A stretch of DNA of 64,000 nt from Deinococcales bacterium (GCA_031414595.1 JANNVX010000037.1:1-64000), one strand, 5' to 3'. Shown: positions 1 through 64,000, counted from the stretch's first letter. The notes: generated from the sequence alone by a model not told the origin. Translations and numbers: made by a program.

Positions 1-157
1 GATTTTAGAACCACAAGAATTAAAACGAATTTCTCTTCTTGGATTAAACCAATGTGTCCATTGGTTCGGGTTCTCGCTTTGCACTCAAACTGTCAAGGAG
101 CGCGCTTTGTCGAGGTTGCTTTTCCTTTCGGAATTGCCCTCGTGCAGAGCGACAAAG

Positions 158-186
158 AATGTATCATCCATTTGTAGTCCTGTCAA
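158..186 (-). promoter_or_regulatory. sigma70-type promoter pointing out of the left edge of the window
   Basis: Minus strand TTGACA (186-181), 17-bp spacer, TACATT (163-158) with an extended TGn. Confidence 0.5.
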
Positions 187-336
187 GCGTTTCGGCATGG
201 TCTCGAGAAAATAGAGTGGATGTCGTCAGAGACAGGAATGTTTGACCTTTGGGGCTTGAGTATCGAGCGTGTGTGAACTCGAGTTCAATTCATGGGTTTG
301 AAATTAGCCTTAAGATATAAACCTTGGAGGTAGGTT

Positions 337-717
337 GTGAAAATAGGTGTAGTGGTTCTTTTGATGCTGATTTCGTCATGGTTTGCTTTGGCACAAAGCA
401 ACACTTCACTTTGTGTGCTAAAAACAAAACTCGATTTAACCAAAAATTGCCAAGGCAAAAAAGTGCAACTAAAAGGCACAATGGCAACATTGGTGACAGC
501 CCATCCAGACATGACCACACCCAGTTACCGTTTTCAAAATTACCTTGATACGGCTTTTGGGCAAGTAGTTTTGATTTCTAGTAAAAGCATTTCTTGCCCT
601 AAGAAAACACTCGAAGTGATTGGAATACTTGGCTGGAAAGACCTTGGCGGGGCGGCTGGCACACGCAATTCGTATCAAAACGCGTTTGTCACCATTGAAA
701 AAATTACCTGCCGATGA
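337..717 (+). CDS. Hypothetical exported protein
   Basis: 126-aa ORF, GGAGG RBS upstream, N-terminal signal-peptide-like hydrophobic stretch ending ALA. Confidence 0.7.
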   Translation: MKIGVVVLLMLISSWFALAQSNTSLCVLKTKLDLTKNCQGKKVQLKGTMATLVTAHPDMTTPSYRFQNYLDTAFGQVVLISSKSISCPKKTLEVIGILGWKDLGGAAGTRNSYQNAFVTIEKITCR

Positions 718-734
718 ATTAGAATTGGCGTTCA

Positions 735-1823
735 ATGACGGATACCCATGCCCACATTAACCTCGAGGCAATTAAAACCAATGCCCGAAGCCTCTCGAGT
801 TTTGCAAACCGCCCGATTCTTGCGCCAATTAAAGCCGATGCTTACGGACATGGGGCGGTGCGGGTAGCATTGGCACTCGAGCCAGAAAAACATATTTTTG
901 GTTTTGCTGTAGCAACTACCTCCGAAGCCCTCGAGTTACGAAGCGCGGGGATTTGCAAAGAGATTGTGCTTTTAACCCCGCCACCAAGCGAAAAAATTGC
1001 AGCTTTGGTGCATCATCAAATCAGTTTTGTCATCTCGAGCCTCGCCGAACTGCAAGCCCTCTCGAACGAAGGGACAGCCCAAAACACTCGTCCCAAAGTG
1101 CATCTGAAAATCAATACGGGCTTAAACCGACTTGGCGCAAGTGCTAAAGAAGGTGCGGCGATTCTCAAAGCTAGTCTTCACTCGAGTACCGAGTTGTACG
1201 GCATCATGACCCATTTGGTGGATTCAGAGGATATTCCTGCGCCGTATGCAATCCAGCAGCTCGAGAATTTTAGAGCCTTTCTCGAGCTGCACCAACCAGA
1301 GGTGGCATACCGACACGCTGCCAATACGGGTGCGGTACTGCAAAAAGACTTACAAGCCGAATTTGATTTAATCCGCCCGGGGATTGGCTTATACGGTTAT
1401 GCGCCCGGTGTAGACTGCGAAGGTATTGTGCAACTTATGCCAGCCATGACACTTTTGGCTCGAGTGATTCATGTTAAACCACTCGAGAAAGGGCAGCCAG
1501 TCTCGTACAACGCCACTTGGACTGCCCCCAAGGATACTCGGGTTGCCACGGTGCGCCTTGGCTATGCTGACGGCTACCCTAAAGCCCTCTCGAGCAAGGC
1601 TAAGATGCTCTTGCATGGAGGGCAAGTTGTGCCACAAATCGGGCGGGTTTGTATGGATCAAGTGCTGCTTGATATTGGTTTGCTCGAGGTGAGTTACGGT
1701 GATTTGGTGATGGTTTTTGGAGTGCAGAGTATCACCGCCGATGATGTGGCAGGATGGGCAAACACCAACAGTTACGAGATTTTAACAGGCATTGGTTCTC
1801 GAGTACCACGCACTTATGATTGA
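735..1823 (+). CDS. alr: Alanine racemase
   Basis: KADAYGHG PLP-lysine motif, KINTGLNRLG, RPGIGLYG, GYADG, GRVCMDQ. Confidence 0.97.
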   Translation: MTDTHAHINLEAIKTNARSLSSFANRPILAPIKADAYGHGAVRVALALEPEKHIFGFAVATTSEALELRSAGICKEIVLLTPPPSEKIAALVHHQISFVISSLAELQALSNEGTAQNTRPKVHLKINTGLNRLGASAKEGAAILKASLHSSTELYGIMTHLVDSEDIPAPYAIQQLENFRAFLELHQPEVAYRHAANTGAVLQKDLQAEFDLIRPGIGLYGYAPGVDCEGIVQLMPAMTLLARVIHVKPLEKGQPVSYNATWTAPKDTRVATVRLGYADGYPKALSSKAKMLLHGGQVVPQIGRVCMDQVLLDIGLLEVSYGDLVMVFGVQSITADDVAGWANTNSYEILTGIGSRVPRTYD

Positions 1824-1921
1824 GTTTTTGGACATTTAAGACTAAGCCAATAACTCTGGGTTTCCCTACCTTCACAGGTCTCGAGTATGATGTGCCTTCC
1901 GAGAGTCGAGTATGATATGCC

Positions 1922-2695
1922 ATGAAATCAAAACTTGAGATTACCCGCAATTGGTTGCCGCGTTATACCGGAATGCCGTTAGCGATGTTTGGCGATCATA
2001 TTTTACTGACCAATTTTGATGATTATGTACAGCGTTTTGCCAATCGTTTTGGAGCAGATATTTACGGCGAGGGTAAAGCCATGCAAGCCTGTACCAACAG
2101 CACGGGTTTAACGATGATTAACTTTGGAATCGGCAGTGCCAATGCGGCTACAATCATGGATTTATTGTCCGCCAGAATGCCTAAAGCGGTGTTGTTTTTG
2201 GGTAAGTGCGGCGGCTTAAAGCACAGCACCGAGCTTGGTAATTTTATTTTACCAATTGCCGCAATTCGTGGTGAAGGGACAAGCAACGATTACTTTCCGC
2301 CTGAAGTGCCAGCCTTACCAAGTTTTAAGCTGCACAAATTTGTCTCCGATAAAATTGTGGCAAGAAACCTCGAGTACCGCACAGGTGTGATTTACACCAC
2401 CAACCGCAGGGTTTGGGAACATGACCAGGTTTTTTTAGAGCGCTTAAAACGCCTAACTTGTATTGGCATTGACATGGAAACCGCCACGGTTTTTATTGTT
2501 GGGCATCATAATGAAATTGCTCGCGGGGCGCTGCTGCTGGTTTCGGATGTGCCAATTACCCCAGATGGGGTCAAAACCGATGCTTCGGACAAAAAAGTGA
2601 CTGAGCAATGGGTGGATGTGCATTTGGATATTGGGATTGAAGCCATGACCGATATTGGCGCAAGTGGCGAGCAGATTAAGCATTTCACGTATTAG
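1922..2695 (+). CDS. amn: AMP nucleosidase (PNP/UDP phosphorylase family)
   Basis: NWLPRYTG, FLGKCGGL, AIRGEGTSNDY, TTNRRVWEHD, IDMETAT motifs. Confidence 0.9.
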   Translation: MKSKLEITRNWLPRYTGMPLAMFGDHILLTNFDDYVQRFANRFGADIYGEGKAMQACTNSTGLTMINFGIGSANAATIMDLLSARMPKAVLFLGKCGGLKHSTELGNFILPIAAIRGEGTSNDYFPPEVPALPSFKLHKFVSDKIVARNLEYRTGVIYTTNRRVWEHDQVFLERLKRLTCIGIDMETATVFIVGHHNEIARGALLLVSDVPITPDGVKTDASDKKVTEQWVDVHLDIGIEAMTDIGASGEQIKHFTY

Positions 2696-2699
2696 GAGT

Positions 2700-2731
2700 A
2701 CAACACAAGTTTAATTTTGTGTTGTGTTTTT
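2700..2731 (+). terminator. Probable intrinsic terminator of amn
   Basis: ACAACACAA-N8-TTGTGTTGT stem followed by a T run. Confidence 0.45.
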
Positions 2732-2787
2732 GCTGACTAAGGTTTGTTACCCCAAGGAATTCACCTTGCGACTTGGGTGGAGGCATT

Positions 2788-3222
2788 ATGATTACCAACG
2801 AACGGCAATACAAAATCACCAAGAATTGGCATAAGAAATTTAGCCAATCTCTCCAAGCACTCGAGCAGCAAGCCCGACCAGAAAATGTTCATCTGCTACT
2901 TTGGAAAGCTGAACAAGACGCAATAAAGAGCCACCTCGAGGAATTTGAAACCGACATGCTGGCTTACGAAAACCTAAAAAAAGGTGCAGTACGCTTTGTG
3001 CCAGTGCAATCCTTAGATAATTTTGGTATTGCCTTTATTCAAGCCCGAATTGCCAAAGGGTACACCCAAAAAGACCTTGCCAAAGAATTGGGTGTCAAAG
3101 AACAACAGGTGCAACAAGACGAAGAGAACTTGTATGCTTCTGCCAGTATCCGTCGCCTGACGCAAATTGCCGAGGTTCTAGGAATGCAAATCAAAGGACA
3201 ATTTGAATTGACGCATTTGTAA
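2788..3222 (+). CDS. XRE-family HTH transcriptional regulator / orphan antitoxin-like protein
   Basis: MITNERQY N-terminus; C-terminal HTH ARIAKGYTQKDLAKELGVKEQQVQQDE; GGAGG RBS. Confidence 0.85.
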   Translation: MITNERQYKITKNWHKKFSQSLQALEQQARPENVHLLLWKAEQDAIKSHLEEFETDMLAYENLKKGAVRFVPVQSLDNFGIAFIQARIAKGYTQKDLAKELGVKEQQVQQDEENLYASASIRRLTQIAEVLGMQIKGQFELTHL

Positions 3223-3408
3223 AAGGCTCGAGAATAGGGAAATTTAGCGCAAGCCAAGTTTGACGTTCTTTTGTGGCTAACAACATATCTTTGCTCCTAA
3301 CTATCTCGAGCCAAGGTGAATTGACTTTGCAGTTGTTGACTAATATTTTAGGGGCTGATGGAAATTGCCTTTTTTGAATCTGGAGAATAAATGGCTTAAT
3401 AGACAAAT

Positions 3409-5613
3409 TTATTCGATTGGTTGAGTTGGGGTTGCCAAAGCAATCGATGTATCTTTAGAGGCTTGTTCAAGCTCATCAAAATATCGATTCCAGCGTTTGA
3501 GGTAGTCGTCAGAAGGTTCAACTGAATGGGTTCTAGCTTTTTGGATAAAATACTCGAAACCTACTCGAGTAAAAAGTTTGGGGAAATCTGAATTTAAGTT
3601 ATTGACTCGAGTCTCAAATAGGCTCTTTGCGAAACGGTCTATAATCTCATTTTCTGTGCCATTCTGTGATGCGTGGACGAGTACCATATTCCATTCGTAA
3701 TCAACTGGTTCAAACCCTAGGTTATTCTCGAGATACACCTGATAGATTTTTGAAGATGTTTCCTTTCTTAATTCTGTAATACGTTCCAAACGATTATCTT
3801 CTTGTCTGTAGCGTTTTTCCTCATGATAGATAGCGTCTAAAGCACAGAATGTAACAACAGGCGCTTCTGCATTTTGAAAAACTTCGATGGGAAGTTTAAT
3901 AAGTGAGTTTAATTCTCGGAATGGTCGGATAATCTGGCGGCAAATCCATTGTCTTCGTTCTTCTCTTAAAGTTTTTTCTGGTGTTATTATCCAATCATCG
4001 CCACAATCAATAATCACTTGTAGATAATTCTGAAACTTTACTTGGTCACGTTGCTGATATAAGCGTAATCCTAGGCTATCAAGAAAGTCAAAAAACATTC
4101 CTTTTTCCTCATTGGAGTTGGCTTGAGTCCACTTCAGAATTAATTTATCCTGCAAAGAGATACTACTTTCAGCCAAAGATGTAAATTCAGCTAAAATTTC
4201 ACTTCGGATTAAACCAATTTTTAATCCGAAATAATTGCGAAAAACATATGGATCGGAAACACGAAAATTGACGTGGGATACATCAGGATCACGATTTTTT
4301 GCATAAGAAAACGTGTGTGGTTTTTGATCATCTTGTTTTGTTGTTAAATGAGGGAATAACTCTTCAAGAATTGGGACGACCAGATTAGAATGAATAGAAA
4401 GGTTTTGTAGCTTTTCCTTTGTACTTTCAACTAGCTCGGGATCTGTTCTATTGGTGCTGTAAATTGCTTCGAGTTCAAATGATGGGATATTGTTTCCTAA
4501 AAGTTCGGGTTTCATTCGAGCAAGTTGTGTCCATACACTGGGTTCACTAATTTTTAGTAACTCGAGTCGTAAAACGTCCCAGAAGTGGACATCTTCTTCA
4601 AAACTGTTCATAGCGACACGTAAAGCATTAACGTAACGGTTCATTTGTCGAATTGTTGGTAGAAATGGCTGTGATTGCAAATAGAAAAACTTCAAATCCT
4701 TTCTTGTGTAGCGTACTACTTGCATATTCGTATTTGGGGGGATGATTGCTTCAATTCTGTTTGCAAAAATTTCGGATAAAGTTTCTTCTGATGGTTCATT
4801 TAGGTAAACAGGGAACTGTACAAGTTTATCAATGTATCGTTCTCCAGAAAGTGAATGAGCGGTTTTTAAGGTTTGACCGTATTCAAGCTGACGGGCAACT
4901 TCATTTGGATCAAATGCAATAAAATATCGAGTGTAGGGAAGGTCAGCAAAGGAACGCAGCAAAGCAATCATTTGACGCAGTGCATCTGATTCTAAACGGT
5001 CAAAATCTTCAATAAAAACCCATACAGGGCAATGAATCTCGTTAAGTAATTCAACAACTAATTCTCGAGTTTCAGTCATAGATAATTGCTTACCCAATAA
5101 TAACTGTTCGATACCTTCAAGTGCTTTTGGTATTGAGTCAAGTCCAACGTGTTCTGAAAGTTCTGCTAATTTAGACCGCTTCAAAAGATTGTTAATACTG
5201 CCAATGAAATGCTGTGTATTTTCTTTCGCAGATGCGATTCTGGTTTTCGCTACTGGTTTCCCCATTAGCTGGTTTATTTGTTCTTCTCTTGTTCGCAGTT
5301 GTCTCAGTATTTCTTCCAGAAATTTATTAAACAAATCTTCACGGTCACTAAACCACCACGGATTAAAGTCAAGAATAATAGGTGCCCCAATTGCCCAGTC
5401 TGAAAGCGATTTTGGGTCATTTGCGTAGTGCTTGATAAAATTTAAGACTGTGCTTTTTCCTGTTCCCCACGCACCAATGATACCAATAGTAAGGCTATCG
5501 GAACTGTTTTCCCTTAGAATCATTTCTGTAATTCCCTGTGCAAGCGGAGCGCGTTCGAGAAGGTCATCATCGGGTTGAACTCGTGGGTTGTCGTGCAGAA
5601 CTTTATTTGACAT
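3409..5613 (-). CDS. KAP-family P-loop NTPase
   Basis: Walker A GAWGTGKS, FNPWWFS, Walker B FIEDFDRL, YIDKLVQFP; AT-rich relative to flanks; start chosen at MSNKV. Confidence 0.9.
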   Translation of the reverse strand: MSNKVLHDNPRVQPDDDLLERAPLAQGITEMILRENSSDSLTIGIIGAWGTGKSTVLNFIKHYANDPKSLSDWAIGAPIILDFNPWWFSDREDLFNKFLEEILRQLRTREEQINQLMGKPVAKTRIASAKENTQHFIGSINNLLKRSKLAELSEHVGLDSIPKALEGIEQLLLGKQLSMTETRELVVELLNEIHCPVWVFIEDFDRLESDALRQMIALLRSFADLPYTRYFIAFDPNEVARQLEYGQTLKTAHSLSGERYIDKLVQFPVYLNEPSEETLSEIFANRIEAIIPPNTNMQVVRYTRKDLKFFYLQSQPFLPTIRQMNRYVNALRVAMNSFEEDVHFWDVLRLELLKISEPSVWTQLARMKPELLGNNIPSFELEAIYSTNRTDPELVESTKEKLQNLSIHSNLVVPILEELFPHLTTKQDDQKPHTFSYAKNRDPDVSHVNFRVSDPYVFRNYFGLKIGLIRSEILAEFTSLAESSISLQDKLILKWTQANSNEEKGMFFDFLDSLGLRLYQQRDQVKFQNYLQVIIDCGDDWIITPEKTLREERRQWICRQIIRPFRELNSLIKLPIEVFQNAEAPVVTFCALDAIYHEEKRYRQEDNRLERITELRKETSSKIYQVYLENNLGFEPVDYEWNMVLVHASQNGTENEIIDRFAKSLFETRVNNLNSDFPKLFTRVGFEYFIQKARTHSVEPSDDYLKRWNRYFDELEQASKDTSIALATPTQPIE

Positions 5614-5675
5614 ATACCCACATTTTAATACTTCGAGCCTTATTAAGTAACTTCGATAAGGCATATCTATTTCTT

Positions 5676-5801
5676 TCAGCTTTTAAGATTGCTGTCTACT
5701 CGAGCTTGGGCAATGTCTGCGTTCAGAACTCGAGCATAAAAATCGTAAATATCAGCAATATCATCAAGCGCAATACTCGAGAATTCAAAGCCAAGACTCA
5801 T
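5676..5801 (-). pseudogene. parE: Truncated ParE/RelE-family toxin (41 codons)
   Basis: ATG overlaps the parD stop (ATGA). It translates MSLGFEFSSIALDDIADIYDFYARVLNADIAQARVDSNLKS*, the typical ParE N-terminal pattern, then stops early. Confidence 0.65.
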
Positions 5802-6043
5802 GCTGTTTTGGCTCTGGCTTTTATGGCGGATTGGAATGCTTGAAGGGAATCAAAACGATAGGTTCTGCCTTGTTCAAGATCGTCAAAACCACGTTCTAGC
5901 ATTGTTTCTAGTTCTGCTTGGGTTTGTTGTTGCTTTGCATTCTCGAGGGTGTTTTGAATCAGTTCTTTGGCAGACGCATACTTGCCTGTTTGGACTTGCA
6001 GCATAACCCATTCTTCAAGGTGTTTAGGCAGTTCTAAAATCAT
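5798..6043 (-). CDS. parD: ParD-like ribbon-helix-helix antitoxin
   Basis: LPKHLEEWVMLQVQTGKYASAKELI pattern; upstream TTGACA-N17-TAATTT-N6-ATG leaderless promoter. Confidence 0.8.
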   Translation of the reverse strand: MILELPKHLEEWVMLQVQTGKYASAKELIQNTLENAKQQQTQAELETMLERGFDDLEQGRTYRFDSLQAFQSAIKARAKTA

Positions 6044-6178
6044 GGTTTCAAATTAGTCCGTTTTGCTTTGGCTGTCAAGTGTGCATTTTAGTGGTTTCTA
6101 CAGTGTAATATTTTACAACCAGCCTTGGTTCAAGATGCACTCGAGTCAAGGCAATTAAAACCTTTTCAACTCGAGAAA

Positions 6179-7009
6179 TTACAATTCTAACCACTCGAGT
6201 AAAACCTTTAGGGTCGCTTTGGGTTGCTCTTGGTGCGGTAAATGCCCAGCCTTGGCAATAATACTCAGGCGGCTTTTTGGGATTTGTACAAGCAACTGCC
6301 TCGCATAAATCTGCGGCACAATATTGTCAGCTTCTCCCCAAATTAAAAGTGTTGGTAAGCTCAACTCGAGCCGAGGCGCGGCGGCAAATAAACTGCGAAG
6401 CGCAGCAAAAAACGCATCGCGTTGGGTGTCGCTATTTACTCGTTCCCAAACTCGAGTGCCTAAAAACTCGAAGTCAGCACTGGGCATGGCGCTTAAATCG
6501 GCGTAGTACGGGTTTAAGGTCGCAAAAGCGGCGGCTTGTCCAGCTTCGCGTAAGCCGTTGTAGAACGCCTCGCCAATGCCAATTTCAAGTAGCGGCTTAA
6601 TGGTTGCTGTTACTTCGAGACCACCAAGGTTTGGCGCAGCCCCACCAATCAAACACAGGGTCTTAGCACGGATTTTATGGGTGGCAGCAAAATTGGCGGC
6701 GACCACTGCCCCTAGGCTCGAGCCAACCAGATGCACGGCTTCTAGCTTGAGTGTTTTGATCAATTCAAGTATCACGTCTGTAAAACCGCTAAGGCTGCTT
6801 GTTTTAGTCTGGCTGCGTCCAAAACCGGGTAAGTCCAAGGCAATCACCCGAAAGTGCTGCGCCAGTGGTACGAAAACATGTCGCCATGTGTCGGCTTCGT
6901 CGCCATTACCGTGAATCAGTAGCACTGTTTCTTGCCCAAGTCTCGAGTCGAAATAAAAGATACCGTTTCGTTCTTGGGCATACGGCTCGAGCAGGGCATG
7001 GGGTTTCAT
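6179..7009 (-). CDS. Alpha/beta fold hydrolase
   Basis: LLIHG, DLPGFGRS, GSSLG nucleophile elbow, WGEAD, GHLPHQEQP. Confidence 0.92.
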   Translation of the reverse strand: MKPHALLEPYAQERNGIFYFDSRLGQETVLLIHGNGDEADTWRHVFVPLAQHFRVIALDLPGFGRSQTKTSSLSGFTDVILELIKTLKLEAVHLVGSSLGAVVAANFAATHKIRAKTLCLIGGAAPNLGGLEVTATIKPLLEIGIGEAFYNGLREAGQAAAFATLNPYYADLSAMPSADFEFLGTRVWERVNSDTQRDAFFAALRSLFAAAPRLELSLPTLLIWGEADNIVPQIYARQLLVQIPKSRLSIIAKAGHLPHQEQPKATLKVLLEWLEL

Positions 7010-8949: not shown

Positions 8950-8993
8950 ATGGCTAATTCTAGCAAGCCGTGATGAGGGTTGTGAGTGTCTGG

Positions 8994-13939: not shown

Positions 13940-14130
13940 GGATTTGTCCCATAATTATTTCCCGATTTCAATTTGAGACCAAAAATACGCATTGGTCACA
14001 GGGCGGACACGGGGGTCCGCCCCTACCTGACGTGATTTTATGGATTTTGTAAGGACAGACCCCTGTGTCTGTCCTGCTAGGAAACGATGTTTTATCATTT
14101 CCAAATCGGGAAGTTAATTGCGGACAAATC
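13940..14130. mobile_element. MITE copy 1 with an internal GTAG-REP doublet
   Basis: ~30-bp imperfect TIRs (GGATTTGTCC...TTCCCGATTT / AAATCGGGAA...GGACAAATC), TAA on both sides, near-identical second copy at 49074. Confidence 0.85.
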
Positions 14131-14147
14131 TAAGTAGCTCGAGTTCG

Positions 14148-21426: not shown

Positions 21427-21464
21427 AAATAAAAACGTGGGTCTCGAGACCCACGTTTTTATTT
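21427..21464. terminator. Bidirectional terminator, a perfect palindrome centred on CTCGAG
   Basis: AAATAAAAACGTGGGTCTCGAGACCCACGTTTTTATTT between convergent genes. Confidence 0.85.
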
Positions 21465-24694: not shown

Positions 24695-24730
24695 AAATAG
24701 CCCTCGAGAGAATTCTCTTGAGGGCTATTT
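24695..24730 (-). terminator. Hairpin terminator after the Ig-like lipoprotein gene
   Basis: AAATAGCCCTCGAGAG-AATT-CTCTTGAGGGCTATTT. Confidence 0.7.
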
Positions 24731-39591: not shown

Positions 39592-42500
39592 TCACTCGAG
39601 TGGAGCAAGCAATTGGGTCAAGTCGTCTTGAGTTAATGCCACAGCACTGCTTAAACCACCCTCGAGAATACCCTTGGCAAGTTCGGCTTTGCGTTGCTGT
39701 AACTCGAGAATTTTTTGTTCTAAACTGCCTTGGGTGATTAACTTATAAACAAAGACTTTTTTGGTTTGCCCAATGCGGTGAGCGCGGTCGGTGGCTTGGT
39801 TTTCGGCAGCCGGATTCCACCACGGGTCAAAATGAATCACGGTATCGGCAGCCGTTAAATTTAAGCCCACCCCACCCGCTTTTAAGCTGATTAAAAAGAC
39901 ACTGGTTTCACCGTTTTGAAAGGCATTGATTTGTTTTGGGCGGTCTTTGGTTTGCCCAGTTAATTTTGAGTACAGTATGCCCATGCCCGTCAGGGTTTCC
40001 TCGAGATTCCCAAGCAAGGAAGCAAAAGCACTAAAGAGTAAGACTTTTCGTCCATCTTCGATTAAGGGCGGTAAATTCTCCTCGAGCCATTCAAGTTTGG
40101 TGTTGTGTTTGACGGATTTGGCTTGCTCGAGTTTCACTAACCTTGGGTCGCAACAGGCTTGACGCAGTTTTAGGAGCGCGTCTAAGACTACAATTTGTGA
40201 ACGGGCTAAGCCCTTACTCGCCACTTCTTCGCGGATGCGTTCGGATACCGCCACCCGAATGGTTTCGTACAGGTCACGTTGTGTACCTTGGAGTTCTAAT
40301 GGCACAATAATCTCGGTTTTTTCGGGCAGTTCTTTGGCGACTTCTTGTTTGGTGCGGCGCAATAAAAATGGTTTAATTCGCCTTGCCAGCACATCACGGC
40401 GGTGTGTGTCGCCGCCGCGTTCGATGGGATTGCGGTAGGTTTGCTTGAAATTGGTGTCGTCGCCTAAAAAACCGGGCATTAAAAAATTATAAATACTCCA
40501 GAGTTCACCAAGGTGATTCTCGAGCGGCGTACCCGTCAGACACAAACGATTTTCGGCTTTTAAGGCACTGGCAGCTTGGGCGGTGCTGCTTTTGGCATTT
40601 TTAATGTATTGGGCTTCATCCAAGATAATCGTGTGGAATTTCTTTTTCTTGAGCTTGTCAAAGTCACGCAGCAAAATCGGGTAGGTCGTGAGGATTAAAT
40701 CCGCCCCTTCGATGGCAGCATAATCCCGTGATTGTCCATGCAGAATCGCCACTTTCAGACTTGGCGCAAAACGCTCAGTCTCGAGTCGCCAATTGGTGAC
40801 TAAACTGGTTGGCATGACCACCAAAGCCGGTTGTTTTAAGCGTCCAGCTTGTTGCTCGAGCAGCAAATGGGCTAAAGCCTGAACGGTTTTACCAAGCCCC
40901 ATGTCGTCGGCAAGCACCCCCGCCAAGTTGTATTCGCGCAAGAACTGTAACCACGCCACACCCTCGAGTTGATACGGGCGCAAAGTTGCCTCGAGTTGTT
41001 TGGGGGCGCTTACGGCTGCAATCCCCGAAAAAGAACGCAGTTTTTGGGCGAGTTCAAGCAGCCTGTCCGCCCCGTGCCAACGCACCTGCAAGGCTTCCTG
41101 AAGCTCGAGTAAGCGGGCTGCGTCAAAAATACTTAAGCGCAGTGCGCCTTTGGGACGCTCCGAGTACAGTTCTAACAGCACCCCAAGCACCACCCGAACC
41201 CGAGAAGCAGGCAACGCCAGCATTCGCTTATCGGGCAAGGTCACATAAAAAATGTGTTTATCGGGCAGGGCTTTGAGTTTTTCTAAGGTAAAGTCTTTGG
41301 GTAAACGTTCAATCATGCCACTGAGAATCGGCAGTAAGCTGATTTGCTTGTCGTCTACAATTACGCCTAGCTCGAGTCCAAACCAATCGTTTTTATCGTC
41401 TACCTGTCCGTACCAATCCGAAATCTGGGCAATCTTAAACGCCCAAGTTTTGTCTTCAATCACCTGCCAACCCAAGTCTCGCAAAGTCGGGGCAAAACGA
41501 TTCAAGAAATCCAGCCACGCATCGTTGGTCTGTGGTCCTGCGCCAAGTGTCCAAGCGTGCTGCACCTTAGCAATGGTATTGGCTGGGGCTTTGGTAAAAT
41601 TCAGAGCTTGGAGGCTCATGACGGCGTTGCGTTCAATATCAAAATCGCGTTTGATTCGCTCGAGTACACCATCTTGATACGAGACCAACTCGCGTTTATC
41701 ACCTTCGGGCAAGCTGGTCTCGCCATACTCAAATTCTAGCACTGCATAATGCAAATCGGTTTGCCAAGATTGCGTACTGGACTGGGTTTTAAGCGTCAAA
41801 ACGGTCTGGCAAGGTAAAATGATTTCTCGGGCATTAAATAAATTGGGTTCTGGAATGGTTGGAAAACGCGCCCGCAGTGCGTCGCGGAAAGCAAATAACA
41901 TTTCGGGTTGCACCAATGGACAACTGGCAAAATGCTTGGCGGCTTTTGGCTCGAGAACCGTTTTTAATTGCCCCAATTCGCCACGCTGAGTGTCCACAAA
42001 CCAAAGTGGGGTAAACGGCAGCACCGCATGACTGCTTGGTTCGGTGCTAAAGACGGGGCGTTGTGTGCCGTCAGGTTGCACAATCCACGCTGGTTCGCCA
42101 ACTCGAGCAGTGCCTTTTTGCAACAAGACTTTACGGGCAGGATTTTCCCAATAACAACGCTCAGTCGACAGTAACCGCTCGAGTAAATACGAAACCAAGT
42201 CCGAATCCTCGAGGGCAAATTCGCTGCTGCCAGCCATGCTGTAGCGATTATTTTGGGTTGCCTGAAATGCCTGTAATAACGCCCTATCGCGCTTGGCATA
42301 ACTGGGAAGTTGCTCGAGGCTGTACGGCAATTTATAAGCCTTAATTTCTGATAAGCCTTTGCTGCTTAGCTTGGCGCTCCAAATGCCGTACATTACTGTA
42401 CCGTTTTTAATGAAAAGAGAAAACAAAAGCGTTTGTTTACTCGCGGTTTCGATTTGACTATTTGCCTTGGGTGCATTAGAAAACCATGTATTCAAAGTCT

Positions 42501-42909
42501 TATCCAATTCTGCGTTGGGCGCAATGATTTCCACAGGAGTCTGGGCTTTAGGTTTTGGGGCGTTTAAGGTTTTTAAGCGCTCGAGCGGGTCTGGGCGTTC
42601 TTTGGCAACCACTTGCAATAATTGGCGAGCCGTTGCCTCGAGCAGCAACGCCACCACATGTTTACAATCCCAACCGACGGGGCAATCACAATCCCCATCG
42701 AGTTCTTCAATATCACCATTTTGATCGCGGGTGATTTCAATATCCACATCGTAGCTCTCGCCGTAAGAACCACCAACCACACCAATCAGATGCTCAGAAT
42801 CACCCCTTGGGCTGATTTTTAATTGAACTTTTTTTACTCGAGAACGAATACCTAACCCGCGCTTAAAAGTCGCAGGGTCAAAAAAGGTGCGAAGCAGCGT
42901 TTCGGACAT
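39592..42909 (-). CDS. SWIM zinc finger / SNF2-family DNA translocase
   Basis: CDCPVGWDCKH SWIM; LADDMGLGKT, DEAQ, LTGTPLEN, SLKAGGVGLNL, QATDRAHRIGQ. Confidence 0.96.
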   Translation of the reverse strand: MSETLLRTFFDPATFKRGLGIRSRVKKVQLKISPRGDSEHLIGVVGGSYGESYDVDIEITRDQNGDIEELDGDCDCPVGWDCKHVVALLLEATARQLLQVVAKERPDPLERLKTLNAPKPKAQTPVEIIAPNAELDKTLNTWFSNAPKANSQIETASKQTLLFSLFIKNGTVMYGIWSAKLSSKGLSEIKAYKLPYSLEQLPSYAKRDRALLQAFQATQNNRYSMAGSSEFALEDSDLVSYLLERLLSTERCYWENPARKVLLQKGTARVGEPAWIVQPDGTQRPVFSTEPSSHAVLPFTPLWFVDTQRGELGQLKTVLEPKAAKHFASCPLVQPEMLFAFRDALRARFPTIPEPNLFNAREIILPCQTVLTLKTQSSTQSWQTDLHYAVLEFEYGETSLPEGDKRELVSYQDGVLERIKRDFDIERNAVMSLQALNFTKAPANTIAKVQHAWTLGAGPQTNDAWLDFLNRFAPTLRDLGWQVIEDKTWAFKIAQISDWYGQVDDKNDWFGLELGVIVDDKQISLLPILSGMIERLPKDFTLEKLKALPDKHIFYVTLPDKRMLALPASRVRVVLGVLLELYSERPKGALRLSIFDAARLLELQEALQVRWHGADRLLELAQKLRSFSGIAAVSAPKQLEATLRPYQLEGVAWLQFLREYNLAGVLADDMGLGKTVQALAHLLLEQQAGRLKQPALVVMPTSLVTNWRLETERFAPSLKVAILHGQSRDYAAIEGADLILTTYPILLRDFDKLKKKKFHTIILDEAQYIKNAKSSTAQAASALKAENRLCLTGTPLENHLGELWSIYNFLMPGFLGDDTNFKQTYRNPIERGGDTHRRDVLARRIKPFLLRRTKQEVAKELPEKTEIIVPLELQGTQRDLYETIRVAVSERIREEVASKGLARSQIVVLDALLKLRQACCDPRLVKLEQAKSVKHNTKLEWLEENLPPLIEDGRKVLLFSAFASLLGNLEETLTGMGILYSKLTGQTKDRPKQINAFQNGETSVFLISLKAGGVGLNLTAADTVIHFDPWWNPAAENQATDRAHRIGQTKKVFVYKLITQGSLEQKILELQQRKAELAKGILEGGLSSAVALTQDDLTQLLAPLE

Positions 42910-49073: not shown

Positions 49074-49263
49074 GGAACTGTCCAAGAATAACTTCCCGAT
49101 TTCAATTAAACCAAAAACATACAATTGGTCACAGGGCGGACACGGGGGTCCGCCCCTACCTGACGTATTTTTATGGATTTTGTAGGGACAGACCCCTGTG
49201 TCTGTCCTGCTAGAAACAATGTTTCATCATTTCCAAATAGGGAAGTTATTTACGGACAAATCC
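49074..49263. mobile_element. MITE copy 2 with an internal GTAG-REP doublet
   Basis: TIRs GGAACTGTCC..AATAACTTCCC / GGGAAGTTATT..GGACAAATCC, TTA target duplication on both sides. Confidence 0.88.
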
Positions 49264-54108: not shown

Positions 54109-54519
54109 TTACGCGCTTAAGTCAAAACGCTCCATCCATTTTTCAGGGGTTTTTAGAACCTCGAACCCAAATTGGGCATATAAGCCGTGGGCATCCTGAG
54201 TTGCCAGCATAAAACGCCGAATCCCTTGGAGGTCTGGATACTCGAGAACCGCCTGCATTAAGGTTTTGCCAACGCCTTGTCCTCGGTACGCTTCAAGAAC
54301 CACGACATCGCACAGATAAGCAAAAACTGCATAGTCGGTCACGACTCGAGCAAAACCAATCATCTGAGAGTTGTGGTATGCGCCAAAATTCAGTGAATGG
54401 GCGAGGCTTTTGAGGATTGTGGCTCGAGACCGATTTTTTGACCAGTAAGCGTTCTCGAGCATCTTAAAAATGGTTTCGGTGTGCAGTAAATTGTTGTCAG
54501 TGCTGATAATCAGGTTCAC
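54109..54519 (-). CDS. GNAT N-acetyltransferase
   Basis: GFARVVTD, YRGQGVGK, LATQDAHGLYAQFGF. Confidence 0.92.
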   Translation of the reverse strand: MNLIISTDNNLLHTETIFKMLENAYWSKNRSRATILKSLAHSLNFGAYHNSQMIGFARVVTDYAVFAYLCDVVVLEAYRGQGVGKTLMQAVLEYPDLQGIRRFMLATQDAHGLYAQFGFEVLKTPEKWMERFDLSA

Positions 54520-55895: not shown

Positions 55896-55898
55896 ATT

Positions 55899-56531: not shown

Positions 56532-56540
56532 GGTTTTATC

Positions 56541-57467: not shown

Positions 57468-57483
57468 GTAGAATCGTAACATC

Positions 57484-58869
57484 ATGACCATAGAAAACGC
57501 AAGTGTAAACGCAGAACAAGCCTTCTTGACACGATTTCAAGCCGATTACTTAAACTTCTCGAGCAGCCATGATTTATTGCCCAGTGTCCGCGACCTCAGT
57601 CGGCGTTATCGTATTTCACCAGTTACCGTTACTCGAGGGCTAAAGCATTTGGTACAGGCTGGAAAAATCATCACCAAGCCCGGGGCGGGAACATTTGTTG
57701 CCCCAACAGAGAGCAATACGCCGTTTGATGCTTCTTGGCAAGCTCTAGCCCTTGGCGCTCGAGTCCCTTTAGGCGAAGAAACCCAAATTTTAATCAGCAG
57801 CCCACGCCCCGATGTGATTGGTTTAGGCAGTGGCTACCCCGACGAGCGCTTACAACCCCATGCTCTGCTAAATAAAGCCGCCCTGCACGCCCTGCGCCGC
57901 CCAGAGGTGTGGTCACGCAGTCCCGCCGCCGGCATCGAACCTTTGCGGCTTTGGTTTGCTCGAGAACTCGGCACGGATTTCTCATTTAACGATGTCCTGA
58001 TTGCCCCCGGAGGACAAGCGGCTGTTGCCACCTGTTTACGGGCGTTAGTGCCACCAGGCGGCAGTCTTATTTTTGAATCCCCCAGTTACTTTGGGGCGTT
58101 GGCTGTGGCTCGTTCAAGTGGCTTAGAAACCATTCCAGTCCCCGTAGACTCCGATGGTATTCGCCCAGATTATCTCGAGGCAGCCTTTGCCAAAAGTGGC
58201 GCAAGGGTGGCGTATCTGCAACCGTCACATCAGAATCCAACTTCGGCGATTCTCAGTCCTGAGCGCCGCCAAGCAGTGCTGAGCGTGGCTGCCAAATACA
58301 ATGCTTTTTTAATCGAAGATGATTACGCCCATGATTTCACGCTCGAGGGAGCAAAACCACGCCCCCTGATTTTGGATGACACCGACGGCAGAATTGTCTA
58401 TATTCGCAGCCTCACCAAGTCGGCTGCCCCAAGTTTACGGGTCGCTGCAATTGTTGCTCGGGGCGCAGTCAGTGAGCGCCTCAAAGCCCAACTTGCGATT
58501 TCAGAAATGTTCACCCCACAAGTGCTGCAACTGACCGCCCTCGAGTTGGTTGGCAGCCCAAGCTACTTGAAGCACCTAAAAGACCTGCGCCAGACCCTAA
58601 AAAAACGCCGCGATGTTCTGGTCACTGCCCTCGAGCAGCACGGCTATGCTGTGCCGAAAATACCCAAAGGCGGCTTTGGTATCTGGCTGCCCTTGCCCTA
58701 CGACGACCTCGAGTTTACCCAAAATGCACTGCGTAAAAATGTGCAAATTGCGGTTGGCAAAGCCTGGTTTCCAGCCGAAAAAAGCGGCGAATTTGCCCGT
58801 CTCAGTTTTGCCGCATCCGATGAAACCGCCCTGCTTGAAGCGGTCAAACGCCTTGAAGAAATTCGGTAA
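57484..58869 (+). CDS. MocR/GabR (GntR plus PLP aminotransferase domain) regulator
   Basis: LPSVRDL HTH, PGAGTFV, NPT, IEDD, SLTKS..PSLR. Confidence 0.93.
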   Translation: MTIENASVNAEQAFLTRFQADYLNFSSSHDLLPSVRDLSRRYRISPVTVTRGLKHLVQAGKIITKPGAGTFVAPTESNTPFDASWQALALGARVPLGEETQILISSPRPDVIGLGSGYPDERLQPHALLNKAALHALRRPEVWSRSPAAGIEPLRLWFARELGTDFSFNDVLIAPGGQAAVATCLRALVPPGGSLIFESPSYFGALAVARSSGLETIPVPVDSDGIRPDYLEAAFAKSGARVAYLQPSHQNPTSAILSPERRQAVLSVAAKYNAFLIEDDYAHDFTLEGAKPRPLILDDTDGRIVYIRSLTKSAAPSLRVAAIVARGAVSERLKAQLAISEMFTPQVLQLTALELVGSPSYLKHLKDLRQTLKKRRDVLVTALEQHGYAVPKIPKGGFGIWLPLPYDDLEFTQNALRKNVQIAVGKAWFPAEKSGEFARLSFAASDETALLEAVKRLEEIR

Positions 58870-58873
58870 TGAT

Positions 58874-59095
58874 TTACAATCTTTCCCATTCTTCTCGAGA
58901 AATCCCCGCTTGACGCAAAATTCTGTGCAGTAAATCCATACCAATATCCCCCTTATGCGGGTTAGGGATGATTAGTTTGGTCTTGCCTCGGAGCATATAG
59001 CCGTGACGTTTACCAACATAAGGACCTTCAAATCCTGCGCGTTGTAAGGCTTCAAGTAAGGCTCTGTGAGAAATTGCCCCAAAGAATGGCATCAA
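58874..59095 (-). CDS. hicA: HicA-family toxin
   Basis: GFEGPYVGKRH, IPNPHKGDIG, RILRQAGISREEW. Confidence 0.9.
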   Translation of the reverse strand: MMPFFGAISHRALLEALQRAGFEGPYVGKRHGYMLRGKTKLIIPNPHKGDIGMDLLHRILRQAGISREEWERL

Positions 59096-59343
59096 GCAAC
59101 CAACTCAAGTTTTGGGATTTCCAAAGAAACACCTGCCAACACAGGCAATTCATCACCAAGCCGAATGTTCAGTAAAATCCATTCTTCAAAAGCAGAACGC
59201 AGTTCTTCACGGCACATCTCGAGGGTGTCGGCGTTTGCCCAGACTCCAGTAATACCTATAATTTCGGCATAAAACCCCTCATCACCACTTAGGAGTTCGT
59301 AATGGGCTTGCTGCATTCCAGCCTTCAAGTAATCTTCAAACAT
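59092..59343 (-). CDS. hicB: HicB-family antitoxin
   Basis: YAEIIGITGVWANADTLEMCREELRSAFEEWI. Confidence 0.9.
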   Translation of the reverse strand: MFEDYLKAGMQQAHYELLSGDEGFYAEIIGITGVWANADTLEMCREELRSAFEEWILLNIRLGDELPVLAGVSLEIPKLELVA

Positions 59344-59376
59344 GGTTGCCTCGAGTTTCAGATTAGCAGATTTCCA

Positions 59377-59440
59377 GAGGGTAAGTTCTAGTACCTTTGC
59401 TCGAGGGCAAGTTCTAGTGCCTTTGCTCGAGGGCAAGTTC
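59377..59440. repeat. 26-bp tandem duplication of the ddl 3' end (about 2.5 copies)
   Basis: GAGGG(T/C)AAGTTCTAGT(A/G)CCTTTGCTC x2 plus GAGGGCAAGTTC. Confidence 0.85.
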
Positions 59441-60439
59441 GACCAATCTCGAGACCAATTCGGCATAACTTAAGCCCCCAGCCTCCCAGAGTTTCGGGTA
59501 CATACTGGTTTTGGTAAAGCCCGGAATGGTATTTAATTCGTTCAAGAAAAGCTCACCCGACTCTGGCAGATAAAAAAAGTCTATCCGCGCCAACCCAGCA
59601 CAATCCAGTATTTTATACGCCTCGAGTGCCAAGGCTTGAACTCGAGCCGAAATTTCTGCGGGTACACTGGCGGGGATGTGCATTTCTGCCCGCCCAGCCG
59701 TGTATTTGGTTTCATAATCGTAGAATTCTGAATCAAAAGTAAGCTCGCCGACTGGACTGGCTTTCGGGTTGTCGTTGCCAAGAATTGCCACTTCGAGTTC
59801 TCGAGGCTTACCCTTAGTGCTTTGTTCGACAATTACACGGCGGTCAAAGCCAAAAGCAAAACGCAGTGCAACCCGCAGTTCATCCAGATTCCCTGCTTTA
59901 GAAATGCCAACACTCGAGCCGAGATTGGCGGGTTTAACAAACATCGGAAAACCCAAGTCCCCCAGCCGTTCAAGCACTTTATCGGGGCTGGATGAAAATT
60001 CGTGTTTGGTGACCGCTTGATAGCCGACTTGAGGAATACTGTAATTTGCCAAGACATTCTTCATCATGATTTTATCCATGCAAACCGCGCTGGACAGCAC
60101 ACCCGAGCCAACAAAAGGAATTCCAGCCAGACGCAATAAACCCTGAATTGTGCCATCTTCGCCCATCGGTCCATGTAGCAGTGGAAAAACCGCATCGAAC
60201 CCTGCGGCACTCGAGGCTTGCATCAGTACCATCTCGCCGCCACTTGGGGCGCTGCCGCGCTCGAGCGCATGGGGCGTTTCGGACGGCGGTAGCCATTTGC
60301 CTTCGCGGGTAATCACCACCGGTGTGACTTCAAAACGGTCTTTGGGCAGTGCCTCGAGTACACTTTTGGCGCTGGATAAGCTGACTTCGTGTTCTTCGGA
60401 TTGACCGCCGCACAAGACAAGTAAACGAATCTTTGACAT
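59414..60439 (-). CDS. ddl: D-alanine--D-alanine ligase
   Basis: [46 protein letters not shown]. Confidence 0.97.
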
Positions 60440-60548
60440 GAGGCAAAGTCTGGGGGAATGGCATGAGTGTCTGATTAGAGATACCGATACGAAACTGGTT
60501 AGAGATGCCAATAGCTGACAATTCATTGTCTTAACGTTAAACTGCTCC

Positions 60549-61397
60549 ATGCCTCGCTCCCCTGTCGAACGCATCCCGCTTGGCGGCTCGAGTGGAATGG
60601 AACGCCGTAGCCACGCGCTGCGTCTGTACTTGGCAGATTTACATAGCAGTCTCGAGACGGGTCTAGGGCGTGATTTAGCCCCTGTGCGTTTATTGGTCTT
60701 GTCCGAAGCCGATTGGCGCAGTGCCAGTCCTTATCCTTATGGTTTTACATTTTTTAGGCGCTTAAAGGACGGTTCTGGGGTGATTTTTGCGCCTGCCGAC
60801 TACCCAGCAAATTTACTCTGGGTCTTTAAGGCACTGCTGGTCAAGGGCGAACATAAACCAAAAACCAGTCTCGAGATGTTCTTAGATTTAACCCTTGGTC
60901 ATGAACTTGGTCATGCCGTCGCCGATCAAATTGGCTTGCGAACCCATGTCAAATGGCTTGATGAATTCTTAGCCACCTACTTGTACTTGGTGGCACTCAA
61001 AAACACCATGCCAGAAGCCCTTAAAGCTGCCCTCGAGTGGGGACAGGTACTGAGTGGCACAAACCTTGAGTGCGCTTTAGCGGACATGGCACTGCTAAAA
61101 CCCAGTGGCGCAAGAAGCCAAAAACGCCGTGTCGCTAAGCAAACCGATACCACTGTGCCACGTCATGACCTTGGTGCATTCGAGTACCCGTTGGTGCGTT
61201 TACCACTGGCTAATCAAGCGTGGTACCAAGCCAGGTTTACGCTTTTTGCTGCCGAACTGCTCGAGTCTCATGGTTTTGATTTTATCAAAGCTGCCTTAGA
61301 GGTACTGCCTAAAGCCAAAGGCAGAGGCGCAATTGCTAAAGCCTTGGTGCGTCTCGAGCCAAGTTTTAAGGCGTGGTTTGCTTCGTTTGGAGGGTAG
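60549..61397 (+). CDS. Hypothetical protein with an HExxH zincin motif
   Basis: [21 protein letters not shown]5-ATG. Confidence 0.7.
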
Positions 61398-61403
61398 GGG
61401 CTT

Positions 61404-61481
61404 GGGTTAAAAGGTAAAAGGTGAAAAGGTAAGAACTTTAACCCTTTAACCTTTTTACCCTTTAACCTTGCCTTTTACCCC
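61404..61481. repeat. Inverted pair of heptamer-like tandem repeats
   Basis: GGTAAAA run followed by a TTTAACC/TTTTACC run. Confidence 0.7.
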
Positions 61482-61496
61482 CTCGAGTGCGAGAAT

Positions 61497-63044
61497 ATGG
61501 GTATGACTCACAACAGCGAACTTGCCGTGGATATGCGCGTTATTCGTAAACAATTTCCGCTTGTTTTGGCAAATGACAATGTTTCTTTTGATGTGCGTTG
61601 GGGCGAAGTTAAAGCCTTGGTTGGCGAAAACGGGGCGGGTAAAAGCACCCTGATGAAAATTTTGTACGGGATGCAGTCGCCAGACAGTGGCGAAATTGTG
61701 ATTGATGGCAAAACCGTGGTCTTGCGTAATCCCAACGATGCCATTAACGCTGGAATTGGCATGGTGCATCAGCATTTTATGTTGGTCGAGCCGCTTTCTG
61801 TGACCGAAAATATTATTCTTGGTCTCGAGCCGGGGTCTAAGTTTAGTGTGGATTTTGTGACGGCTCGCAAAAAAGTAGATAAGCTGATTAAACAATTTAA
61901 TTTTGAACTCTCGCCAGACGATTTAATCGAAGAGTTGCCAGTGGGTTTACAGCAAAAAGTCGAGATTCTCAAAATGCTCTACCGTGAAAGCAGTATTCTG
62001 GTGCTGGACGAACCTACGGCGGTACTGACTCCACTCGAGACCGAGGAGCTATTTAAGTTCTTGCAGCAGTACGCCCACGATGGCAATGCGGTGATTTTTA
62101 TTTCTCATAAGTTGCGTGAAGTGATTGAGGTGTCTGACCGAATTTCGGTGATGCGAAACGGCAAAATGATTGGTACAGTCCCCACCCCGGGCATTACCCC
62201 GCCGCAAATTGCCAACATGATGGTTGGGCGTGAAGTGGTGCTACAAGTCAAAAAAGCTGAGGCTAAACCTACCGAGGCTGCACTCGAGCTAAAAGGTGTG
62301 ACGGTTGGACACAAAGGCGAAATCCCGAAAGTCAATAATGTCTCGTTTACGGTTCATGCAGGCGAAATTGTCGGTATCGCTGGGGTTGAAGGCAATGGTC
62401 AATCGCAATTGGTTGAAGCCATTACGGGTTTAGAGCATTACGCTGGGCAAATTATCTACAATGGTAAAGCCGTCAAACCGGAGGCTCGAGCGGTGCGAAT
62501 GGCGGGTGTTTCGCACATCCCAGAAGACCGTAACGAACGTGGTTTGGTGGTCGAGTACAGCACCCAAGAAAACCTGATTTTAGGCGATCATTTTACCGAT
62601 GAATTTTGCGGGGCGCTTGGGCTGCTAAAATTTGATGCAATAGAAAAAAATGCTCGAGCGTTAATCGAAGAATTCGATATTCGTCCGCGAAGTATAGAAA
62701 ATCCAGCCAAAAGCTACAGTGGTGGCAATGCCCAAAAAATTATTGTGGCACGCGAAATGACGCGTGACCCAAAAATACTCGTGGCTTCCCAACCGACCCG
62801 TGGTGTGGACATCGGTGCAATCGAATTTATTCACACCAGCATTGTCGAAGCTCGGGATAAAGGCTTAGGGGTGCTACTGGTCAGTGCCGACCTTGGCGAA
62901 GTGATGAGTTTATCAGATCGAATTTTGGTGATGTATGAAGGTGAAATTGTTGGTGAGATGCTGCAAAAAGAAGCCACCGAAGAAAAACTGGGCTTGCTGA
63001 TGGCAGGTGTCCATGACAACCCTGCCTCGAGCGCTCATGTCTGA
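61497..63044 (+). CDS. Nucleoside/sugar (CUT2) ABC transporter ATP-binding protein
   Basis: [34 protein letters not shown]. Confidence 0.93.
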
Positions 63045-63267
63045 ACTTATCTTGTATTCCAAACCAAATTGTGGGCTGTGCGATAAAGCCAAAGCCTTGT
63101 TAAAAACAGCCAAACTCGAGTACACCGAAATTAACATTCTCGAGAACCCAGAAGGCATGGCGCTGTATGCGTTTGAAATCCCCGTGCTGGTCGGCTCGAG
63201 TGGACAAGAACTGATTAAAGGTGAATTTACGGAAAGTAAAGTAGCCGCAATTTTAATGCGGTCTTGA
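63037..63267 (+). CDS. Glutaredoxin-like protein (DUF836 type)
   Basis: [13 protein letters not shown]xxC; IPVL. Confidence 0.88.
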
Positions 63268-63344
63268 ACAACCAAAGAAAAAGAGAAAAACGGTATTGGG
63301 TTTTCCTCTTCCTCCTTCCTCTGCTCTTATGTTACGCTTCTGCT

Positions 63345-63971
63345 ATGGCATTGACTGTTATCAACCATCCATTGGTTCAACATAAACTCGCACTGGTACG
63401 CGATGAACGTACTGGCAGTAAGGATTTTCGGGAATTGATTACCGAAGTGACGATGCTGATGGCGTTTGAAGCGATGCGTGACCTTGAACTCGAGGATGTG
63501 CAAATTAAGACCCCTGTAGAAACAGCCACGGTTAAAATGCTTTCGGGTAAAAAACTGGCATTGGTAGCGATTCTACGGGCTGGACTGATTATGGTGGATG
63601 GAATTTTGAAACTCGTGCCAGCCGCTAAAGTTGGGCATATTGGCACATACCGCGACCCAACCAGTAAAGAACCGGTGCGCTACTACGCCAAGTTACCGCC
63701 AGATATTCAAGACCGCCGTGTCTTTGTGCTTGACCCGATGCTGGCAACCGGTGGCAGTGCGGTGGATGCGATTACCGAAGTCAAGAAATTTGGGGCAACC
63801 CAGATTAAACTGCTGAACATTATTGCTGCTCCAGAAGGTGTCGAAAGAGTACAAAAGGCGCATCCAGATGTAGAAATTATTGTGGCAGCGCTCGATTCGC
63901 ACTTAAATGACCATGCCTATATCGTTCCCGGACTGGGCGATGCTGGCGATAGGATTTACGGAACAAAGTGA
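63345..63971 (+). CDS. upp: Uracil phosphoribosyltransferase
   Basis: [39 protein letters not shown]. Confidence 0.97.
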
Positions 63972-64000
63972 GGCTCATCGAGTCCAAGTGAGAACAAGCC

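Follow-up and report, generated by a model that had tools for sequence, protein, structure and literature searches.

The described system that comes closest to the subject of this work is HIP1 (GCGATCGC), a hyper-iterated palindrome (HIP) that, to our knowledge, is known only from cyanobacteria and for which we know of no agreed function after thirty years. Two other kinds of system also bear on it. The uptake sequences of Neisseria (DNA uptake sequence, DUS) and of the Pasteurellaceae (uptake signal sequence, USS) are non-palindromic words of 9-12 bases that occur near once per kb, and in Escherichia coli very-short-patch repair by Dcm/Vsr enriches the word CCWGG, modestly and at one position. 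Here, we describe the palindrome CTCGAG in a stretch of 64,000 bases from a Deinococcales bacterium (JANNVX010000037.1, positions 1 to 64,000), the whole of which is called the window below. The over-abundance of this word is confirmed, both in the window and in the genome to which the window belongs. In one family of the Deinococcales, CTCGAG is maintained and spread by a process that is specific for these six bases, and the natural reading is that the word belongs with the hyper-iterated palindromes, as a HIP-like case maintained in this way.

HIPs occur near once per kb in cyanobacteria (Elhai 2015, PMC4390886). The conservation of individual HIP1 sites has been taken as evidence of selection rather than of neutral replenishment (Xu et al. 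2018, PMC5861425). More recently, methylated HIP1 was reported to raise transformation more than 100-fold (bioRxiv 10.1101/2024.09.10.611283), and a role as a watermark in DNA uptake has been proposed for it (PMC13756078). The HIP1 literature that was retrieved consists of cyanobacterial work only, and CTCGAG does not occur in the accessible text of Elhai's paper. A hot-spring methylome (10.64898/2026.06.24.734251) lists CTCGAG as one of the motifs that are methylated in Fimbriimonadia and also in one host-phage group, and the available passages of that preprint make no tie to the Deinococcota. No published report of CTCGAG hyper-abundance was found in a search that stopped short of subscription journals and of the supplements to the methylome preprint.

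In the window, 326 copies of CTCGAG are present, while 100 dinucleotide-preserving shuffles of the same sequence contain 7.22 on average (standard deviation 2.58, maximum 14), which amounts to a 45-fold excess. An earlier note, made by eye from the sequence, had counted about 16 sites in the first 2 kb and about 38 in the first 7 kb and had claimed that the enrichment persists to the end. Both counts are exact according to the list of sites (16 by base 2000 and 38 by base 7000), and each 4 kb holds 8-30 sites all along the window to its end. As contig C37, the window forms part of a draft assembly (G000 hereafter) of 4.49 Mb in 120 contigs, which is 94% complete and has a G+C content of 47%. 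This assembly contains 23,235 copies of CTCGAG, or one per 193 bases (5.2 per kb), three times the number of the second-ranked hexamer. The ratio of observed to expected copies (O/E) is 24, 44 and 18 under Markov models of order 0, 1 and 2, so that it lies far from 1 genome-wide; it falls to 3.8 at order 3 and to 1.16 at order 4. The two highest orders are uninformative because the sub-words from which they predict come mostly from CTCGAG itself, which accounts for 90% of the occurrences of CTCGA and for 69-70% of those of TCGA and CTCG.

The excess is not tied to a reading frame. In the gene set of G000, which comprises 3,997 reading frames from a simple longest-frame caller (89% coding), CTCGAG occurs at 5.15 per kb in coding and at 5.34 per kb in intergenic DNA. 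By codon phase, the coding copies number 12,205, 4,055 and 4,342, phase 0, which encodes Leu-Glu, holding 59% of them. When synonymous codons are shuffled within genes, 1,342, 426 and 272 copies are expected in the three phases, and 12,222, 4,069 and 4,358 are seen, which is a 10-fold excess overall and an excess in every phase. The enrichment is therefore not confined to the Leu-Glu frame. The view that codon or amino-acid bias alone does not suffice to explain the word, for which the alanine racemase gene alr had been the example, is borne out by the equal density in spacers and by the shuffles, and alr itself carries 7, 2 and 4 sites by phase.

The consequences for the proteome are considerable. 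Leu-Glu dipeptides number 20,370 where 9,166 are expected, and 12,222 of them (60%) are encoded by CTCGAG. Of the positions at which the protein sequence permits the word, 36-60% are occupied by it (0.60, 0.47 and 0.37 for the three phases). According to the shuffle counts, CTC makes up 8% of the Leu codons and GAG 21% of the Glu codons outside CTCGAG; the hexamer itself contains over half of the CTC codons and almost half of the GAG codons. Because of this low use elsewhere, the word opposes the codon preference of the organism. The process behind it is strong enough to double a dipeptide. Thus, a pressure at the level of DNA can rewrite proteins, with residues replaced even in RpoB.

The window was aligned to three genomes of the same genus: G005 (44.1 kb aligned, 94.0% identity), G001 (48.9 kb, 90.2%) and G003 (44.5 kb, 78.7%). 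CTCGAG is intact at 212 of 235, 229 of 251 and 175 of 235 sites, respectively, while the fraction of any hexamer that is intact is 0.74, 0.62 and 0.29. Matched controls are available for the most distant of the three. Among phase-0 codon pairs whose residues are both conserved in G003, 3,763 of 9,578 (39%) are identical in DNA sequence; for pairs that spell CTCGAG the count is 95 of 110 (86%), and for other encodings of Leu-Glu it is 11 of 62. Of 24 sites in spacers, 18 are intact in G003, where the control fraction is 0.30. Within the word, the identity to G003 is 0.90-0.95 per position; already at the first base on either side it drops to 0.72-0.83, the range that also applies further out. 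Sites are thus kept well beyond matched controls in orthologous DNA, and the constraint is limited to six bases; both points are new.

Site sharing extends beyond the genus. In rpoB, one position carries CTCGAG in 10 of 10 genomes of the family and in 0 of 17 others, and several further positions carry it in 8-9 of the 10; the sharing spans genera whose RpoB is 79-85% identical to that of G000. The sites do turn over. When G001 is taken as outgroup, parsimony places 11 gains and 20 losses on the branches to G000 and G005; when G003 is taken instead, the counts are 12 and 16. In these small numbers gains and losses are of the same order, and the turnover is roughly balanced. The losses are mostly transitions.

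The anatomy of the word is in keeping with a six-base unit. The flanks of CTCGAG are near background composition, except for fewer C before and fewer G after it. A longer motif or a dispersed repeat of which CTCGAG would be a piece is ruled out by these near-background and unconserved flanks. Among the one-off variants, TTCGAG and CTCGAA (1,306 and 1,368 copies), CTTGAG and CTCAAG (1,154 and 1,171) and CCCGAG and CTCGGG (980 and 950) are the most numerous, the transversion variants ranging from 173 to 759. Pairs of CTCGAG 6 bases apart do not occur in G000; such a tandem would make GAGCTC, which is itself almost absent. As a separate observation, CCTCGAGG is rare in G000, with 178 copies against about 700 predicted from the flank frequencies (about 4-fold), and each of the other 15 flank combinations has between 1,108 and 1,905. 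A pressure of its own would seem to act on the 8-mer, or else on CCTC/GAGG adjoining the word.

CTCGAG is also present in hairpins and in tRNA genes. The presence of the word in two terminator stems of the window, as noted earlier, is upheld, both hairpins being real by comparison of their folds with those of shuffled sequences (Table 1). In the second of the two, CTCGAG is base-paired to a one-off copy on the opposite arm, which reads CTTGAG on the plus strand. The word is found in 7 of the 68 tRNA genes of G000, at about 1.3 per kb, which is above chance and a quarter of the genome average. Five of these seven genes sit in a dense array on contig C56, in which at least 14 tRNA genes lie within about 3 kb. 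A 16S gene was not found in the G000 metagenome-assembled genome (MAG).

The organism lies outside the cyanobacteria, as had been supposed. Its Ddl protein matches those of Deinococcus at 64-67% and those of Trueperaceae or Deinococcales MAGs at 55-57%, and CGATCG, the core of HIP1, occurs only 3 times in G000. The four top Ddl matches, labelled Burkholderiales, were rejected as members of the clade; they have no CTCGAG in the 3-5 kb available for each. In a survey of 151 genomes of the order, based on raw densities with rounded genome sizes and regardless of base composition, all 19 genomes of the window's family, which represent five genera and include one single-contig genome, have 4.3-6.8 CTCGAG per kb. 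Intermediate densities are found in genus g13 (10 genomes, 1.4-3.0 per kb) and in genera g22 and g24 (3 genomes, 2.9-3.4 per kb). Genus g9 has 0.6-1.1 per kb (22 genomes), and families f2 and f4 together range from 0.3 to 2.9 per kb (60 genomes). At the other end, all 36 genomes of family f3, of 1.9-4.8 Mb each, contain 37-1,193 copies. Not all relatives share the excess, therefore.

Family f3 appears to be the closest family, its RpoB being 74-76% identical against 66-73% for the others, as judged from this one protein without a tree. In rpoB, the window's family has 8-13 sites, and four genomes of f3 have 0, 0, 0 and 1; in f3, the conserved Leu-Glu positions of this gene are encoded by CTGGAG or CTGGAA. 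Within the window's family, the third-position G+C content of rpoB ranges from 0.47 to 0.85, and CTCGAG is therefore independent of base composition. The order offers complete genomes of intermediate density (1.4-3.4 per kb, in three genera) and a sister-like family that avoids the word almost completely, which together form a natural gradient suited to phylogenetic profiling. Phages of the clade were looked for among viral loci with three clustered sites (at least 126 stretches, of which 80 were taken), and none of those taken resembled the window's family; these 80 loci mostly have 63-72% GC, at which the reversed word is also common, and five whole records contain 0.6-3.7 CTCGAG per kb.

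Compared with HIP1 and the alternate cyanobacterial HIPs, CTCGAG is alike in being a short palindrome with a strong excess, 15- to 300-fold for the cyanobacterial words and 18- to 44-fold for CTCGAG under low-order models. Both are found in all frames and in spacers, are lineage-wide and have conserved individual sites, both have an unsettled function, and the hosts of both have transformation machinery. The likening of CTCGAG to HIP1, which was the starting point, is sustained in these respects. The two systems differ in other ways. CTCGAG has six bases instead of eight, is present at about 5 per kb instead of near 1 per kb, and belongs to a different phylum. HIP1 is periodic at 10-90 kb, no consistent periodicity of this range was found for CTCGAG on contigs of 112-305 kb, and no cognate methyltransferase of CTCGAG was found across the family. 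Furthermore, CTCGAG is a classic restriction site, that of XhoI, and is avoided by the closest family.

Uptake sequences resemble CTCGAG as genome-wide words that occur in genes, spacers and terminator hairpins, reshape peptides and can spread by molecular drive. They are, as generally described, longer, non-palindromic and about five times sparser. Dcm/Vsr is similar in principle, since a word can become more frequent through a repair bias that is linked to its methylation; in the present case all six positions are constrained, and Vsr was not found in G000. An independent case with a different word and in a different phylum allows a comparison with HIP1. Features that the two share become candidate causes, namely the conservation of sites, the genes for transformation and perhaps a chromosome present in multiple copies, while features that they do not share, such as periodicity and a conserved cognate methyltransferase, are less likely to be essential.

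The sharp and symmetric six-base footprint leads us to infer a dimeric reader of the kind found in type II restriction-modification. It is possible to speculate that CTCGAG serves as a mark of self-DNA in natural transformation or in the recombination that follows it. A symmetric, dimeric reader would recognise CTCGAG at one of these steps, DNA that bears the word would be favoured in uptake or integration, and the word would spread and persist by molecular drive, with or without selection. Similar arguments have been made for uptake sequences and, in recent work, for HIP1. We rank this reading highest, tentatively and in the knowledge that it may well prove wrong, because of the uptake genes of G000, the often-transferred kinds of cargo in its motif-poor islands, the failure to find a family-wide methyltransferase or a mismatch nuclease, and the recent work on HIP1. 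The uptake genes encode ComEC, three PilB/PilT-type (T2SSE) ATPases and three N-methyl prepilins. Motif-poor regions of at least 8 kb are only two in number (three segments), with 40-43% GC and 1.5-1.6 CTCGAG per kb. One of them is a polysaccharide biosynthesis cluster, and among the contents of the other is a gene for a protein of 3,646 residues that has RHS repeats and a pretoxin HINT domain; the cargo of both is of kinds that are often horizontally transferred. The longest CTCGAG-free stretch in G000 measures 4.9 kb.

Several points weigh against a mark of this kind. The conservation data fit such a mark, methylation-directed repair and selection of binding sites equally well. A reader protein did not turn up, and the competence genes are a permissive condition only. 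With six bases, palindromic and at 5 per kb, CTCGAG does not look like the uptake sequences introduced above. The flanks of changed CTCGAG sites are as divergent as those of random changed hexamers (0.074 and 0.075 in the comparison with G005, 0.127 and 0.126 in that with G001), and hence nothing indicates that the gains were brought in with imported DNA. Finally, a mobile repeat of about 190 bp, two copies of which lie in the window, has 0 CTCGAG in 2,553 bases, where only about one gain would be expected. This repeat resembles a miniature inverted-repeat transposable element (MITE): it is bounded by inverted repeats and contains two GC-rich hairpins; 14 copies of at least 150 bp are found in G000, with a median identity of 89%, and there are many short matches in G001 and G007.

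A bolder form of the self-mark, which we regard as improbable, is a kin-recognition code. In such a code, the mark would be written in about 23,000 places and recognised by a symmetric reader resembling a restriction enzyme, with no need for a family-wide methyltransferase, and family f3 would have purged the word as foreign. If so, the reader would bias uptake, recombination or repair towards marked DNA, and enrichment in one family and avoidance in the other would be the two sides of a single gene-flow barrier that arose independently of HIP1.

The first alternative to a self-mark in transformation is methylation-directed repair or biased gene conversion, as in Elhai's model of HIP1, which we consider unlikely on balance but worth serious attention. 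Methylated CTCGAG would be read by a repair system and mismatches would be resolved towards the word, one-off copies being converted and decayed ones restored, perhaps between the copies of a multi-copy chromosome. A constraint of exactly six bases, symmetric as for a type II-like reader, would suit such a system, and the transition-dominated one-off variants fit a pool that is fed by the decay of CTCGAG. Moreover, a cognate methyltransferase accompanies the HIP wherever a HIP is abundant (Elhai 2015, PMC4390886), and G000 has about 25 DNA methyltransferase genes. Against this model, scans for the Eco57I, N6_N4, C5 and N6_Mtase families over 20 relatives (the D12 class in G000 only), together with three protein queries, did not reveal a family-wide methyltransferase; most genomes of the family are incomplete MAGs, absences depend on the queries used, and unrelated enzymes could share a specificity. 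The methyltransferase sets change among the 20 relatives, as is expected of restriction-modification turnover. An orthology check of 14 N6_N4 loci resolved the enzymes of about 340 residues into several unrelated groups. A catalytic-motif screen gave 59 reading frames, of which 20 outside the sets already covered were scanned, again without a family-wide enzyme. A TaqI-like enzyme encoded on contig C4 is present in 3 of 21 genomes, and one family genome that is 91% complete has no C5 methyltransferase match.

The most conspicuous enzyme is an orphan C5 methyltransferase of G000 with no nuclease gene beside it (Table 1). Within the genus, 7 of 8 genomes have it in conserved synteny, with an identity of 75-99% (BLASTP, 322-399 aligned residues). 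The family's remaining four genera, single-contig genome included, gave no orthologue, and close homologues (62-69% identity) are encoded in distant phyla, 120 listed homologues having generic names only. Matches in the PDB are limited to the catalytic domain of M.HhaI. The XhoI-family nuclease (PF04555) was not found in 13 of 13 genomes of the family and is present in 1 of 8 other genomes; it was not found either in the two f3 genomes searched. In the one genome that has it, G015 of another family, an N6_N4 methyltransferase gene adjoins it. Homologues of this methyltransferase occur in 31 of the 151 genomes of the order, none of which belongs to the window's family; in the 30 further genomes, mainly of genera g8, g9 and g15, they are 62-79% identical. 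In addition, Vsr was not found in G000, in which there was also no NucS match above the cut-off. The earlier suggestion of a dedicated, methylase-linked process thus stands in part: a lineage-wide process specific for the hexamer is supported by the conservation of its sites, while the link to a methylase is not, since no family-wide methyltransferase turned up in the scans and the orphan C5 enzyme is confined to the genus. For these reasons, a mark read during transformation or recombination is still ranked above repair.

A second alternative, and in our judgement a rather doubtful one, is that CTCGAG is bound by an abundant protein that organises the nucleoid or the chromosome, and is selected at each site, which corresponds to the reading of HIP1 by Xu et al. 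Conservation of the sites extends to both genes and spacers, and their density is even, with a variance-to-mean ratio per kb of 0.7-1.4 along the contigs. Their spacing does not point the same way. Genome-wide, it is near random, being close to geometric with a coefficient of variation of 0.99, and the only periodicity is the 3-base one of coding DNA. Periods of 5-100 kb were looked for on six large contigs (112-305 kb), and no consistent one emerged: a single contig gave a permutation p of 0.024, and the strongest periods differ among the six, the length of the contigs limiting the power of the test. The long-range order that a HIP1-like system might have shown is therefore not borne out. Selection would also be needed at about 23,000 sites and would have to be strong enough to alter proteins, and no candidate protein turned up.

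A Chi-like signal, by which a helicase-nuclease is halted on the cell's own DNA, is one of the two mechanisms that Kamoku and Nielsen suggested for HIP1, but for CTCGAG it is very improbable. The only match to the PD-(D/E)XK RecB family in the 94%-complete G000 is a single reading frame of 256 residues, no protein of RecB or AddAB size was found there, and a palindrome lacks the strand orientation that defines Chi. As for the idea that the word passively results from bias in codons, dicodons or dinucleotides, the order-4 ratio and the predominance of phase 0 could be cited in its favour, but it can hardly be upheld against the share of motif-derived sub-words in that ratio, the densities by frame and in spacers, the 10-fold lower codon shuffles, the opposition to codon preference, the matched-pair conservation and the six-base limit within near-background flanks. 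An ordinary XhoI-type restriction-modification target was likewise rejected, with no cognate nuclease found in 13 family genomes and the word enriched, not avoided.

Table 1. Location of the features discussed. Coordinates without a prefix refer to the window; those with a prefix give genome and contig.
Feature	Location	Strand	Remarks
Dispersed CTCGAG field	1..64000	.	n = 326; 5.1 per kb; palindrome, both strands alike
Alanine racemase gene (alr)	735-1823	+	PF01168 and PF00842; 13 CTCGAG
Terminator-like hairpin, perfect, 17-bp stem	21427..21464	.	CTCGAG at apex (21443-21448); -25.8 kcal/mol, z -6.19; 0/200 shuffles as good
Terminator-like hairpin	24695..24730	.	CTCGAG in one arm (24703-24708); -22.2 kcal/mol, z -5.98
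MITE-like repeat, about 190 bp	13940-14135; 49079-49262		two copies
KAP-family P-loop NTPase gene	3409-5664		751 aa
SNF2 helicase gene	39592-42909		1,105 aa; SWIM zinc finger
Orphan C5 methyltransferase gene	G000:C22:27856-29055		between CBS-domain gene and RlmL-like methylase gene; no adjoining nuclease gene
XhoI-family nuclease gene and adjoining N6_N4 methyltransferase gene	G015:C1:75199-76793		genome of another family
Motif-poor stretches	G000:C46:27072-41608; G000:C14:20971-40764		GC 40-43%
tRNA gene array	G000:C56, about 144-2945		

Two further observations concern the surroundings of the word. Palindromes in general are strongly avoided in G000: 37 of the 64 palindromic hexamers have an O/E of at most 0.15 and 53 have one of at most 0.5. 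GGGCCC has 0 copies, GGCC has 152 (O/E 0.01), and GATC has an O/E of 0.14. Finally, the window encodes a KAP-family P-loop NTPase and a SNF2 helicase with a SWIM zinc finger, two kinds of protein that are frequently associated with defence or with mobile DNA.

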